Positions 28,424 through 33,476 of a DNA stretch of 64,000 nt are shown here, one piece after another; the stretch's first letter is position 1, and every line of letters starts with the position of its first letter. A program made the position numbers and the translations under genes. Location of the stretch: contig CAWFUG010000009.1 of NCBI GenBank assembly GCA_963818965.1, positions 160,001 through 224,000 on the forward strand. The letters are read 5' to 3'. The notes beneath the pieces are model-generated. The model was not told where the DNA came from, made no database searches, and was given only the letters and a program-made list of their open reading frames with translations. This stretch comes from an uncultured Verrucomicrobiae bacterium (GTDB lineage: Bacteria; Chlamydiota; Chlamydiia; Chlamydiales; Rhabdochlamydiaceae).

Positions 28424-29281
28424 ATGAAAAAGACGTTGTTGATTTCTGTCATTGCTCTTTGTGTAACGGCAATTGTGATCGTATCGATTGTGGTTGCCTT
28501 TCGAGAAAAGAAAGAGCGCGACTTCATTACCTTGTATGGGAATGTCGATGTCCGCCAGGTCGACATCGGATTTCGGGTAGCGGGTCAAGTGACAGAATTG
28601 TTCTTCGAAGAGGGGGATGTCGTCAGAGAAGGGGACTTGATGTGCGTCTTAAGTACAACCCCCTACGATAGTCAGCTCGATGAGGCGATTGCTCTAAAAG
28701 AGGCGATTGCGGTGAATTTGGAGAATGCAGAGATCCTGTTGCGTCGGCGTGTGGAGTTGGTGGATGTGGGGGCTGTTTCGCAAGAAGATGTCGATAATGC
28801 GCTTGCTAATCGAAACCAGCTCATCGCAAATTTGGCACAGGCGGACTCGGCCATCCTCGTAGCCCGCGACAATTTGACTTACACGAGAGCCTATGCGCCG
28901 ACCGATGGGATTTTGCTCACGCGGATCCGGGAACCGGGAACAGTGGTCAACCCGGCTGATCCCGTCTACACGCTCTCTGTCAGCTCTCCTGTCTGGATCC
29001 GTGCTTTTGTCGATGAACCTGATTTAGGCACTGTCTATTACGGAATGCATGCAGAGGTATTCACCGATATCAAAGGGGGCAAGAGCTACCCCGGGACGAT
29101 CGGATTCATTTCTCCCGTCGCAGAATTTACACCCAAAACAGTCGAAAGTACGCAGTTGCGCACCGATCTCGTCTATCGCCTGCGCATCTATGTCGACAAT
29201 CCAGATCGAGGACTCGTCCAGGGGATGCCCGTCACTGTCAAACTCGATTTGAGGAGACAGCACGATGTTATACCGAAATAA
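28424..29281 (+). CDS. HlyD/membrane-fusion protein (YbhG-like)
   Basis: LYGNVDVRQV, APTDG, ISPVAEFTPKTV..LRTDLVYR, GMPVTV; current stop codon lies within an inserted element. Confidence 0.9.
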   Translation: MKKTLLISVIALCVTAIVIVSIVVAFREKKERDFITLYGNVDVRQVDIGFRVAGQVTELFFEEGDVVREGDLMCVLSTTPYDSQLDEAIALKEAIAVNLENAEILLRRRVELVDVGAVSQEDVDNALANRNQLIANLAQADSAILVARDNLTYTRAYAPTDGILLTRIREPGTVVNPADPVYTLSVSSPVWIRAFVDEPDLGTVYYGMHAEVFTDIKGGKSYPGTIGFISPVAEFTPKTVESTQLRTDLVYRLRIYVDNPDRGLVQGMPVTVKLDLRRQHDVIPK

Positions 29282-31199
29282 TACCAATCCTCGAAAACAA
29301 CCTGCATTTCAGCTGCGTCGAATCCCGGCGCTTTCACGCGCTCAAATGCAGGTTATTTTCGAGGATTGGTATAACTTGAAGAATCGGGTTTTGGCGGCGT
29401 CGGCTTTATCCCAGAATTTTTGTTTTCACTCGCGCCTTGTCTCTCGGCAATGGTCGCTCGCTCCAAACAAAAATTCTGGGGGGCCTCCTTGTCAAAATCC
29501 CGATTCTTCAAGTTATTTCGATATGGTCGAGATTAAAGGGCTTTCCAAAAGATTTCCAAAAACCTCCTCAGATGCCATCAAACGGCTCGACGCCTCTTTC
29601 CCGACAGGTAAAATCATAGGGCTAGTGGGGCCTGATGGCGCAGGGAAGACGACGTTGATCCGCTTGATCGCCGCTCTTTTGACTCCTACGGAAGGCGCGA
29701 TCTCGATTAAAGGATTGGATACAGTAAAAGACAGAGAGCAGATTCCTCATTTGATAGGCTATATGCCTCAAAAGTTCGGGCTCTACGAAGATCTCACGGT
29801 GCAGCAGAATCTCGATCTCTACGCCGATTTAAAAAATGTGGTGGGGGAAGAGAAGCGCGCGACTTGTGAAAAGCTCCTTCACTTCACCGCGCTCGAGCCT
29901 TTTACAGGCAGGTTGGCAAAAAATCTCTCGGGTGGGATGAAGCAAAAACTCGGCCTCGCTTGTGCCCTGATCAAAAAACCGACCCTGCTCCTGCTCGATG
30001 AACCCAGCGTCGGCGTCGATCCCGTCTCGCGGCGCGAACTGTGGAAAATGGTGAAGGATCTACTCGATGAGGGGATCTCCGTGCTGTGGAGCACGGCTTA
30101 TCTCGAAGAGGCGGAACAGTGCGATCACGTACTTTTGTTAAATGAGGGGAAGCTCCTCTACAGCGGAGACCCCAAACAGCTGACGGAAAAGATGGAAGGG
30201 AGGACCTTTGCGATCGAGGAGACAGATCGCCGTGCACTTTTGTTTACTTTGCTTAAAAACAAAGAGGTCATAGATGGGGTCATTCAGGGAAGCACGGTAC
30301 GCGTTCTATTGCGGGACAAGAATATTTTAAGCGGATACCCAGCGCTCCATGCTGTTCCGCCTCGCTTTGAAGATGGGTTCATCGACATTTTAGGGGGTGG
30401 GCCTGGAGGAGAATCGCAGCTTGCCGACAGAGCGCCTCTCGTTACAAAAAAGGGGGACACGCCGATCGTTGCGGAGAATGTGACCAAGCGGTTTGGAGAC
30501 TTTGTCGCGGTCGATGATATCTCCCTCTCTGTCCGAAGAGGAGAGATCTTCGGCTTATTAGGACCCAATGGTGCGGGGAAGACGACGCTGTTTAAGATGC
30601 TCTGTGGTCTCCTCCATCCGACATCGGGAAAAGCCCAGGTCGACGGGGTCGATTTAGAGACGTCTGTCAAGCCGCGCAGAGAGATCGGCTACATGGCTCA
30701 AAAATTTTCCCTCTATGGCAATTTGAGCGTCTATCAGAATTTGGAGTTTTTCTCCGGAATTTATGGCCTTACCCTCAAGGAGCAAAGGGTCGCTGTTGCA
30801 GAAATGCTAGAGATTTTCGATTTGCAGAAATACCGCGATACCTCTTCAGAATTGCTTCCCTTGGGTTATAAACAGAGACTGAGTCTTGCCTGTGCGAACA
30901 TGCACCACCCGCAGGTGCTGTTTCTCGATGAGCCTACATCGGGTGTCGATCCGATCGTCCGCCGGGAGTTCTGGAACCACATCAATGGCCTCGTGAGAAG
31001 GGGAGTGACCGTGATGATCACGACCCACTTTATGGAAGAAGCGGAATACTGCGACAGAATCGCCCTGATCTATCAAGGCAAAATCATCCAGATGGACACG
31101 CCAGATGGCCTCAAAGAGAGCGTCAAATCACCCGAACTGCCCAACCCGACCCTAGAAGATGCATTCATCAAGAAGATAGAAGAGTACGATGCGAAATAA
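29265..31199 (+). CDS. Dual-domain ABC ATPase (YbhF-like); the 85 codons after Met-Leu are element-derived, alternative start ATG at 29523
   Basis: GPDGAGKTT, LSGGMKQKL, LDEPSVGVDP; GPNGAGKTT, LPLGYKQRL, LDEPTSGVDP. Confidence 0.92.
   Translation: MLYRNNTNPRKQPAFQLRRIPALSRAQMQVIFEDWYNLKNRVLAASALSQNFCFHSRLVSRQWSLAPNKNSGGPPCQNPDSSSYFDMVEIKGLSKRFPKTSSDAIKRLDASFPTGKIIGLVGPDGAGKTTLIRLIAALLTPTEGAISIKGLDTVKDREQIPHLIGYMPQKFGLYEDLTVQQNLDLYADLKNVVGEEKRATCEKLLHFTALEPFTGRLAKNLSGGMKQKLGLACALIKKPTLLLLDEPSVGVDPVSRRELWKMVKDLLDEGISVLWSTAYLEEAEQCDHVLLLNEGKLLYSGDPKQLTEKMEGRTFAIEETDRRALLFTLLKNKEVIDGVIQGSTVRVLLRDKNILSGYPALHAVPPRFEDGFIDILGGGPGGESQLADRAPLVTKKGDTPIVAENVTKRFGDFVAVDDISLSVRRGEIFGLLGPNGAGKTTLFKMLCGLLHPTSGKAQVDGVDLETSVKPRREIGYMAQKFSLYGNLSVYQNLEFFSGIYGLTLKEQRVAVAEMLEIFDLQKYRDTSSELLPLGYKQRLSLACANMHHPQVLFLDEPTSGVDPIVRREFWNHINGLVRRGVTVMITTHFMEEAEYCDRIALIYQGKIIQMDTPDGLKESVKSPELPNPTLEDAFIKKIEEYDAK
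29269..29525. mobile_element. Outer TA-bounded palindromic element (164 bp) carrying a nested insertion
   Basis: Left arm tataccgaaataa|cttgaagaatcgggttttg pairs with caaaatcccgattcttcaagttatttcgatat; inner 16-bp stem cccagaatttttgttt / aaacaaaaattctggg. Confidence 0.85.
29279..29373. mobile_element. Nested family 1 element, 95 bp (internal-deletion derivative)
   Basis: ataccaatcctcgaaaacaacctgcattt / aaatgcaggttattttcgaggattggtat; shares the cccggcgctttcacgcgctcaaatgca core with copies at 19138 and 60502. Confidence 0.88.
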
Positions 31200-32325
31200 T
31201 TCAGGGCGCATGCGCCGTTTAAAAGCCCTCGTGAAAAAAGAGTTCCTTCAGGTCATGCGCGACCCGAGCAGCCTCCTGATCACGGTCTTCTTACCCCTCC
31301 TCCTGATCTTTCTCTATGGTTCAGGGGTTTCGCTCGATCTCAATCACTTGAGGGTGGGACTCGTGCTCGAAGATACTGCACCTGATGCGCGCAGTTTCGC
31401 ACAGTCCCTCACTGATTCCCGCTATTTTGACGTCAAGATCGTGCGCGATCGGAGAGAACTGACTGAAGATCTCATGCGAGGATCGATCCGTGGCATCTTC
31501 GTCATCCCATCCTACTTCACACAATACAGGAACCGGCCCGATCAGATCGCTCCGATCCAGGTAATCGCCGATGGGAGTGAGACGAATACGGCCAACTTCG
31601 TGCAAAACTACGCGATGGGGGCGCTGGATAACTATTTGGCTCAAGAGGCCCTGACGACGGGGATTTCCACTGAGGTCCCGTTGATCCGCACGCAGCCTAG
31701 ATACTGGTATAATGAACAGTTGGAGAGCCGTTTTTATCTTCTCTCGGGCTCACTTGCGATCATCATGACTCTCATCGGAGCGATGTTGACTGCCCTCGTC
31801 GTCGCAAGAGAGTGGGAACGGGGGACGATGGAGGCCTTGCTGTCGACAAGTGTCGAACGTTCAGAGCTCGTAATCGGCAAAGTGATTCCGTATTTCGTCT
31901 TAGGGATGGTTTCGATGGGGATCTGCGTCCTTCTCTCCGTCTTCTTCTACGAGCTCCCACTCCGAGGTTCACTGCTCCTTTTAGCGCTCGTCTCGGCGAA
32001 CTTTCTCTTTTGCTCTTTGGGACTCGGGCTCATGATCTCGACTGTGACGAAGAATCAGATCTTCGCTTATCAGATCACGCTCATCGTCGGTTTTTTGCCC
32101 GCTTATATCCTCTCTGGATTCCTCTTTGAAATCCATAGCATGCCTCAGTGGATTCAGATCCTCACTTACATCATCCCTGCGAAGTACTTCGTCCAAAGTT
32201 TGCAGGCGCTCTTTCTGGTCGGGAATGTCTGGGAACTGATCCTCTTAAACATGATCCCGATCTTCGGCTTAGGCGTTCTCTTTTTTTGGATCACAGGCGT
32301 AAAAACAGTGAAGAGGTTAGATTGA
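31189..32325 (+). CDS. ABC-2 permease (YbhS-like)
   Basis: KEFLQVMRDP, VAREWERGTMEALL, LSGFLFEIHSMP. Confidence 0.92.
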   Translation: MRNNSGRMRRLKALVKKEFLQVMRDPSSLLITVFLPLLLIFLYGSGVSLDLNHLRVGLVLEDTAPDARSFAQSLTDSRYFDVKIVRDRRELTEDLMRGSIRGIFVIPSYFTQYRNRPDQIAPIQVIADGSETNTANFVQNYAMGALDNYLAQEALTTGISTEVPLIRTQPRYWYNEQLESRFYLLSGSLAIIMTLIGAMLTALVVAREWERGTMEALLSTSVERSELVIGKVIPYFVLGMVSMGICVLLSVFFYELPLRGSLLLLALVSANFLFCSLGLGLMISTVTKNQIFAYQITLIVGFLPAYILSGFLFEIHSMPQWIQILTYIIPAKYFVQSLQALFLVGNVWELILLNMIPIFGLGVLFFWITGVKTVKRLD

Positions 32326-33476
32326 GACAGGTTTTCATCCTCATTTGGAAAGAGCTTTTGACTGTGTTGCGCGACCAGAAAGTGCGCATTTCGATTTTAT
32401 TGCCCCCGCTCATTCAGCTCTTCGTCTTCACATTTGCCGCAACGCTCGATGTCAAAGATGTCCCGATCGGCATTTTGAATCGGGACTCAGGAGAGAAGGC
32501 CTTTGAGCTTGTCGAAAGATTTTACGGGACGAAGATCTTCAACAACAAGATCATCTTCCTCAAAGGGGTCGAACAGATCGCCCCTTTCATGGATACCCAG
32601 AAAGGAGTGATGGTGGTCTCCATCGATGAGCAATTCTCCCGCAATCTCGACGCTGGAAAACCCGCAGATATTCAGCTCATCTTAGACGGAAGAAAGACGA
32701 ACACCGCACAAATCGTCGCAGGTTATACACAGGAGATCATCAACCGCTTTAACAACGACTACACCGCACAGGCAGATTTATACCCTGCGCGCTCAAATGC
32801 ACCATCCTCAAGCGCGCGGGGTATAAAAACACAAAACATAGAACTCGTTCCACGCACCTGGTTCAATCCGAATATCCTCTATTTTTGGTACAATATCCCC
32901 TGTCTCGTCTGTGTCCTTTCGATGCTGATCTGTCTCGTCGTCACGACACAATCGGTAGCCAGAGAGCGGGAACTCGGCACCTTCGATCAGCTCCTCGTCT
33001 CGCCCCTGACTCCCCGAGTGATTTTGATCGGTAAAGTCGTCCCCGGCGTCATCGTCGGCTTTTGCGAAGGGCTCGTGATGCTCATCATCGGAACCTGCGT
33101 CTTCGGCGTGCCCTTTATGGGATCTTTGCCCCTGTTTTTATTTAGCCTCATCATCTTCGTCAGCTCGATCTGCGGCGTCGGCCTCTTTATCTCCTCCCTC
33201 TCTGCAACCCAGCAGCAGGCGATGCTCGGGACATTTGTCTTCATGCTCCCCTCCGTGCTCCTCTCAGGCTTTGCGACCCCGATCGAAAACATGCCCACCT
33301 GGCTCCAGCCCGTGACTTACCTTATCCCCCTTCGGTACATGCTCGTCATCTCGAAGGGGATTTTCCTCAAAGCGATGCCCGCTAGGATCGTCCTAGAAAA
33401 CCTCTGGCCCCTCTGCGTGATCGGCCTATGCAATGGCCTAGGGGCAGCTCTATTTTTCCGCAGGAGGCTCCCATGA
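32322..33476 (+). CDS. ABC-2 permease (YbhR-like) with a 15-aa element-derived insertion
   Basis: KELLTVLRD, VARERELGTFDQLLVSP, LSGFATPIENMP; TTG start overlapping the upstream TGA. Confidence 0.9.
   Translation: MRQVFILIWKELLTVLRDQKVRISILLPPLIQLFVFTFAATLDVKDVPIGILNRDSGEKAFELVERFYGTKIFNNKIIFLKGVEQIAPFMDTQKGVMVVSIDEQFSRNLDAGKPADIQLILDGRKTNTAQIVAGYTQEIINRFNNDYTAQADLYPARSNAPSSSARGIKTQNIELVPRTWFNPNILYFWYNIPCLVCVLSMLICLVVTTQSVARERELGTFDQLLVSPLTPRVILIGKVVPGVIVGFCEGLVMLIIGTCVFGVPFMGSLPLFLFSLIIFVSSICGVGLFISSLSATQQQAMLGTFVFMLPSVLLSGFATPIENMPTWLQPVTYLIPLRYMLVISKGIFLKAMPARIVLENLWPLCVIGLCNGLGAALFFRRRLP
32779..32825. mobile_element. 47-bp internally deleted family 1 element, in frame in the permease gene
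   Basis: tataccctgcgcgctcaaatgcaccatcctcaagcgcgcggggtata; right 38 nt identical to copy A at 19267-19304. Confidence 0.92.

Follow-up and report, generated by a model that had tools for sequence, protein, structure and literature searches.

The DNA analysed here is a 64,000-nucleotide window from the genome of an uncultured Rhabdochlamydiaceae bacterium (G000:C9:160001-224000; all coordinates are numbered within the window), and its point of interest is a pair of nested palindromic elements at the junction between a HlyD-family membrane-fusion gene and the gene for a double-domain ABC ATPase. Four genes follow one another on the + strand: the membrane-fusion gene, the ATPase gene and two genes for ABC-2 permeases. 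A Pfam scan recovered this order of membrane-fusion protein, fused double ATPase and two ABC-2 permeases, with all four genes intact, the ATPase and both permeases included. We take the arrangement to be an ABC exporter of the YbhGFSR type. Orthologues of the ATPase were found in 15 other genera (E ≤ 2.8e-85).

Two nested palindromes at a gene overlap

Directly after the ATG TTA of the ATPase, 255 inserted bases form two palindromes, one inside the other. Inverted repeats pair 29276-29313 with 29340-29377 in the inner element and 29371-29392 with 29495-29516 in the outer one. Together with comparisons between copies, they bear out an earlier sequence-only reading of this DNA, which had described a ‘family 1’ element nested in the left arm of a different element. 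The sizes were given there as 95 and 164 bp; without their target duplications the elements measure 90 and 160 bp. The outer element lies in two pieces, 29271-29281 and 29375-29523, flanked by TA on the left (29269-29270) and TG on the right (29524-29525). The inner element took as its target the TAA that ends the first 11 bases of the outer element, and now stands between two copies of it (29279-29281 and 29372-29374). That reading had placed it at a TA, which has to be corrected to a 3-bp duplication, TAA or TTA, perfect in four of seven paired copies in this genome and one base off in the other three. The net insertion lengths, 162 for the outer element and 93 for the inner, are as it had reported them.

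The insertions have rewritten the end of one gene and the beginning of the next. The membrane-fusion product now ends in ..RRQHDVIPK before a TAA stop at 29279-29281, and its last three codons (ATA CCG AAA) and the stop derive from the left end of the outer element, in agreement with the earlier account of this terminus. The ATPase open reading frame (ORF) runs through 85 stop-free codons, as previously counted, that give no ATPase match, up to an in-frame ATG at 29523-29525. This is followed by GTC GAG ATT AAA, the beginning of the conserved N-terminal strand VEIKGLSKRF. The original start, ATG 29265, overlaps the upstream stop by 17 nt, as it did before the insertions. The features are collected in Table 1.

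Table 1. Genes, elements and changed bases at the junction, in window coordinates
Feature	Position	Strand	Basis or remark
HlyD-family membrane-fusion gene	28424..29281	+	ORF; Pfam HlyD_D23 1.3e-16, HlyD_3 4.2e-15
GAGGAG ribosome-binding site, unaltered by the insertions	29251..29256	+	Sequence; 8 nt upstream of ATG 29265
Original ABC ATPase start codon	29265..29267	+	Public gene call starts here, 644 aa
ABC ATPase ORF	29265..31199	+	Begins ATG TTA TAC CGA
Left copy of the outer element's TA target duplication	29269..29270	+	Within codon 2 (TTA)
Outer element, first 11 bases of left arm (TACCGAAATAA)	29271..29281	+	Comparison with un-nested copy G000:C1:121727-121886
Inner family 1 element, palindromic, 90 bp, ends TACCAATCC..GGATTGGTA	29282..29371	+	
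Derived T>C, in-frame TAA to CAA	29298	+	Codon 12 of the long ORF
Right copy of the inner element's 3-bp TAA duplication	29372..29374	+	
Outer element, remainder: rest of left arm, conserved core, right arm	29375..29523	+	
Derived G>A, outer element right terminus	29521	+	Removes a C-G pair from the foot of the outer stem
In-frame ATG	29523..29525	+	Last base of outer element plus right target duplication, A to G at 29525
Native body of double-domain ABC ATPase (VEIKGLSKRF..)	29526..31199	+	Pfam ABC_tran twice, 1.6e-65
Two ABC-2 permease genes, completing the operon	31189..33476	+	Pfam ABC2_membrane_3 6.4e-45, 7.6e-40

Ancestral sequence, insertion order and derived bases

Relatives retain the N-terminus as it stood before the insertions. 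The metagenome fragment P0004, 84% identical to the ATPase N-terminus, starts MLVEIKGLSKRFPK, P0113 (72% identity) starts MNLVEIKGLSK, and locus L078 has ML directly before VEIKNLSK. Among 69 metagenome orthologues, the residue preceding the V or I of this strand is L in 24 and M in four, and orthologues from 15 other genera of the bacterial family mostly have M-x-x-x-L-V. A pre-insertion sequence of ATG TTA GTC GAG (MLVEIK), as the sequence-only reading had reconstructed it, is thus well supported; element-free orthologues do not point to an original MVEIK, the observation that had been named as telling against it. With that sequence restored, the upstream product would formerly have ended in HDVSRD before its TAA.

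The order of the two insertions is given by an allele that carries only one of them. A contig from a peat metagenome (run X3; 151 nt, depth 2.3) matches 29156-29277 with three mismatches and is then joined to 29371, skipping exactly 93 nt (29278-29370), with four ambiguous bases at the join as the TAA duplication predicts. A close relative thus has the outer element alone at this site. This outer-only allele, a single short contig of low depth with 29 nt on its shorter side, shows that the outer element inserted first and that the inner one is recent and mobile. In a genome of the same genus, G001 (89% complete, 220 contigs), neither the operon DNA nor the ATPase found a match. A scan of metagenome contigs with the ATPase returned no close relative (best identity 70%) and served only as a source of N-termini, and protein queries spanning the junction found no fragment joining the element peptide to the ATPase. 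One metagenome record (run X4, record 24; about 91% alike over 29516-29692) was at first read as sharing GATATG. We have withdrawn this reading, since three of the 16 differences are unplaced, those closer than about 30 nt to the aligned end apparently going unrecorded, and the record is uninformative on 29521 and 29525.

The outer element occurs in 29 of 61 genomes of the bacterial family, and in G000 as five paired copies plus solo ends. From the other genomes we fetched 68 copies and kept the 58 that aligned well from end to end; the family counts below refer to these. The sequence-only reading had expected un-nested copies to end in GGTATA, and the un-nested copy sought and found in this genome, G000:C1:121727-121886, has TA on both flanks and ends CGGTA followed by TA. 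Of 116 ends, 104 have TA as their outward flank and three have TG, and GATATG, which would have counted against a derived state had other copies shared it, occurs at none. Within G000, the flank is other than TA at five of 13 other ends. The window copy, which ends CGATA before TG, differs at 29521, where 17 of 20 have the consensus G, and at 29525. Over the 112 columns conserved at 80% or more it has five differences: that at 29388 is common to the window and the un-nested copy, and those at 29409, 29440, 29521 (G>A) and 29525 (A>G) are private to the window. By these comparisons both terminal changes are derived.

The outer family also has a reading frame to offer. With flanks, 30 of the 58 copies measure 164 nt, and 39 add a number of bases divisible by three. 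No stop interrupts the phase of the window copy in 34 of the 58, or in 32 when the orientation is reversed; other frames are stop-free in 3-14. Both the open frame and the multiple-of-three length thus appear to be largely properties of the family. The peptide that the family encodes (YRNNLKNR..SRLA.RQWSLAPN..PPCQ.PDSS..FGI) turns up again within P0026, an unrelated predicted protein. We classed an end as 5'-proximal when the element is open and in phase with at least 80 open codons downstream and at most 60 upstream; by this simple rule, with starts taken from the ORFs, 17 of the 58 copies (among loci L032-L052 and L174-L213) lie in frame within 60 codons of a 5' end, giving 19 oriented ends near the beginning of a long ORF, and seven ends lie inside one. 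These positions suggest that the family prefers, or is tolerated at, gene starts.

The inner family 1 element was found in 10 of the 61 genomes and has arms of 38 nt. In the phase of the window, every other family 1 copy carries a stop (CGA AAA TAA), where the window copy has CAA. The T>C at 29298 responsible for this is the sole window-private difference in the element's 90 positions relative to four other full-length copies; all four have T at this site, as do 21 of 22 arm ends taken from other genomes. In the window copy, the partner arm retains the consensus at the matching site, so the change is a derived one confined to one arm. Another family 1 copy, G000:C1:175759-175848, has inserted in frame in the 755-codon ORF of a CopA-like P-type ATPase, to which it adds 31 residues; its phase is unlike that of the window copy and is open in the consensus.

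Start codon use at the rebuilt junction

We propose that two non-autonomous palindromic mobile elements inserted successively into the translationally coupled overlap of the membrane-fusion and ATPase genes. In the first step, the 160-bp element would have entered the TA of codon 2 (TTA). As a length in multiples of three and one stop-free frame in each orientation are typical of this family, the ATPase would simply have gained 54 extra N-terminal codons, and the upstream gene would have taken a TAA from the element's arm and kept its length. Later, the 90-bp element would have entered the TAA of the outer element, bringing its own consensus TAA to codon 12, and T>C at 29298 would then have abolished that stop. 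The product would be an ATPase whose 86-residue N-terminal extension is basic and lacks any membrane-like stretch (the highest Kyte-Doolittle mean over 19 residues is 0.81).

Which start is used, and whether selection fixed any of these changes, we infer from sequence and predicted folding. As the likeliest reading, to which we give about an even chance, the ATPase is still made mainly from its original ribosome site and ATG 29265, with the extension. The exact 644-aa product is present in the protein collection, from which the 558-aa form starting at 29523 is absent. Shine-Dalgarno-like 4-mers precede 316 of 981 first ATGs of long ORFs in G000 and 608 of 6754 internal ATGs, which indicates that the organism uses such sites, though not always; no such 4-mer lies upstream of ATG 29523. 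The 85-codon stretch is open only by virtue of T>C at 29298, which favours use of the old start over the new ATG. This substitution looks compensatory: of the 270 possible single changes in the inner element, seven remove its in-frame TAA (about 0.026).

Several points weigh against this explanation. Roughly two thirds of long ORFs lack a Shine-Dalgarno-like 4-mer (a rough count), so that its absence before 29523 says little. The nested hairpin begins 4 nt after ATG 29265 and could hinder initiation there, although ribosomes that complete the upstream gene at 29281 would unfold it. The inserting copy could already have carried T>C at 29298. Two derived changes stand in the final five bases at the outer element's right end, one making an ATG and the other unpairing it, which looks less accidental than one change alone. 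Moreover, all the chance figures given here are post hoc.

The second of these terminal changes was followed by RNA folding of 29225-29575. With G at 29521 the predicted minimum free energy is -156.0 kcal/mol, against -149.4 kcal/mol for the observed sequence, and the G>A change opens the 12-bp basal helix of the outer stem. The predicted probability that ATG 29523 is unpaired is 0.04 with both sites at consensus, 0.06 with 29521 alone reverted and 0.64 as observed, and for the bases that directly follow ATG 29265 the G>A takes it from 0.23 to 0.56, so that by this model the change would help either start. In the predicted fold of 29515-29533, the last bases of the element and the first codons of the gene make up a small 8-bp hairpin, with ATG 29523 as its 3-nt loop.

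The sequence-only reading had seen in A>G at 29525 a compensatory mutation that rescued translation at native length. In this account selection rebuilt a start at the old junction, a native-length MVEIK.. product is made from 29523, and the 85 upstream codons are irrelevant or a leader. The ATG itself is genuine and derived, and could act as a secondary start: the change from ATA to ATG is set against the near-general TA flank, the adjacent G>A exposes it in the predicted fold, and two of the four private changes in the conserved columns fall within the last five bases. Some orthologues do begin with M directly before the strand, and if a start at 29523 were already functional, the inner element's in-frame TAA would have been harmless on arrival. 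Yet the insertions spared the old start with its strong ribosome site, the new start has no comparable motif before it, and the outer insertion, whose frame is open in most copies of the family, left nothing to rescue. T>C at 29298 would in turn be pointless if only 29523 were used. Elsewhere, the gene-side junction codon at the 19 comparable 5'-proximal in-frame ends is ATA in 15 and ATG in one, and a general trend towards building an ATG at such insertions is not significant (2 of 20 with the window included versus 2 of 97 other ends; hypergeometric P ~ 0.13). We therefore hold selection for the new start to be unlikely, and compensatory rescue is probably not the main mechanism.

The single ATG among those ends is a second case of this codon at a gene-side flank. 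It belongs to locus L048 (G058:C47; element at about 1458-1603 of the locus), where CGGTA is followed by TG, the frame reads ..FGM-HPNF.. and the insertion is 5'-proximal and in frame; the downstream product is presumably a HIT-like protein. Two further ATG flanks fail the gene-context rule, L188 having no frame behind it and L178 a frame that is open and in phase for only 50 codons.

It may instead be that the three substitutions are neutral drift in old, immobile copies, the extension being tolerated or the operon dispensable, and that survivor bias does the rest. Variation in termini and flanks does occur (TA is lacking at 12 of 116 ends, and at more than a third of the other ends in G000); with four private changes in 112 columns of the outer copy, one that makes an ATG has a chance of about 1-4%; and in-frame insertions of the outer family are common and mostly unmodified. 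Drift accounts less well for a young inner element whose only private change removes its only in-frame stop. For this to coincide neutrally with an independent 1-4% event at the other end is improbable, even allowing for the post hoc choice, and the four genes of the operon are all intact. Drift is for us likewise an unlikely explanation.

A stepwise rescue by two routes seems quite unlikely to us: here the gene would have tolerated the outer element as an extension, the inner TAA would have broken the long frame, and expression would have been regained in two ways, by G>A melting the foot of the outer hairpin along with A>G making a start exactly at the former junction, and by T>C reopening the long frame, so that a long and a native-length ATPase would both be made. 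If true, it would be a natural case of point mutations domesticating mobile-element ends into translation signals. Finally, a target of TG instead of TA, with ATG TTG GTC (M-L-V) before insertion, an original TG on the right and G>A in the left flank, is very improbable, because TA is the rule and one flank mutation would still be needed, although TTG also encodes Leu and the protein evidence from P0004 cannot separate it from TTA; it would in any case have no effect on which start is used.

The wider interest of the locus lies in a base-by-base view of a small genome absorbing mobile palindromes at a tightly coupled gene junction, where one gene receives its stop codon from an element and the gene after it an open frame, and single substitutions would then decide the survival of the downstream gene. 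The case leaves the understanding of such elements unchanged; it offers three defined point changes for testing.

Relation to known palindromic elements

Both elements have the make-up of MITEs, or miniature inverted-repeat transposable elements. The outer one is 160 bp long without transposase coding, has terminal inverted repeats of about 25-30 nt and occurs as dispersed copies, and its target-site duplication agrees with the element-free P0004 (protein only), which fits a single TA in ATG TTA GTC. The inner one has inverted repeats, a duplication and a presence/absence polymorphism.

Palindromic elements of Rickettsia, on which Ogata et al. reportedly wrote in 2000 and 2002, are the nearest likeness in behaviour. 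In the review PMC10969869, they are described as palindromic repeats of about 100-160 bp, present in many copies and found repeatedly in frame in unrelated genes; their open frame is conserved, and the host protein gains a peptide from it. In-frame fusions caused by intragenic MITEs are likewise known from that review. The conserved stop-free frame and in-frame residence in unrelated genes recur here, as a likeness of behaviour. The present elements differ in belonging to a different phylum (a chlamydia-like bacterium), and an Rfam scan of 29000-29800 gave no match. They differ also in that two families are nested at a gene overlap, with lineage-specific point changes touching a stop and a start. 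Our literature search found no paper on palindromic repeats in Rhabdochlamydiaceae or on chlamydial in-frame MITEs, nor a related one on bacterial MITE insertions creating new start codons. The locus adds a clear case of little-described translated repeats, resembling those of Rickettsia, in environmental chlamydiae.

In their ends, the two elements recall different classes of MITE. Correia elements of Neisseria are bacterial MITEs with a TA duplication, of the IS630/Tc1-mariner type. The outer element is like them in its terminal inverted repeats, TA flanks, small size and lack of a transposase, and unlike them in that its arms covary between copies and its core is conserved across genera; a DDE_3 transposase as its autonomous partner was not found in G000 (a genome 87.85% complete). 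Tourist-like MITEs and elements of the IS5/PIF-Harbinger type make a 3-bp TWA duplication, and the inner element is like them in being flanked by TAA or TTA on both sides. The sole DDE_Tnp_1 (PF01609) insertion sequence found in G000, the candidate source of a cognate transposase, has unrelated ends. It is 1202 bp long and present in three near-identical copies (G000:C1:260607-261808, C2:149485-150685 and C9:457884-459084), with ends unlike those of both elements.

Some further features of the families may be recorded. About 40 nt in the core of the outer element (..CGCGCCTTGCC..GGCAATGGTCGCTCGCTCC; window 29388-29500, loci L032-L053) are nearly invariant across genera. The arms vary between copies yet remain complementary, those of L037, L049 and L053 being quite different. 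On the opposite strand of the outer element, a conserved stretch resembles a -35 box and is followed by AAGGAGG. Elements of 154-157 bp at G000:C2:36978-37131, C2:175463-175617 and C10:12966-13122 share the arms of family 1, and many further short matches have only its 35-nt centre in common; several element families thus seem to be built from shared modules.

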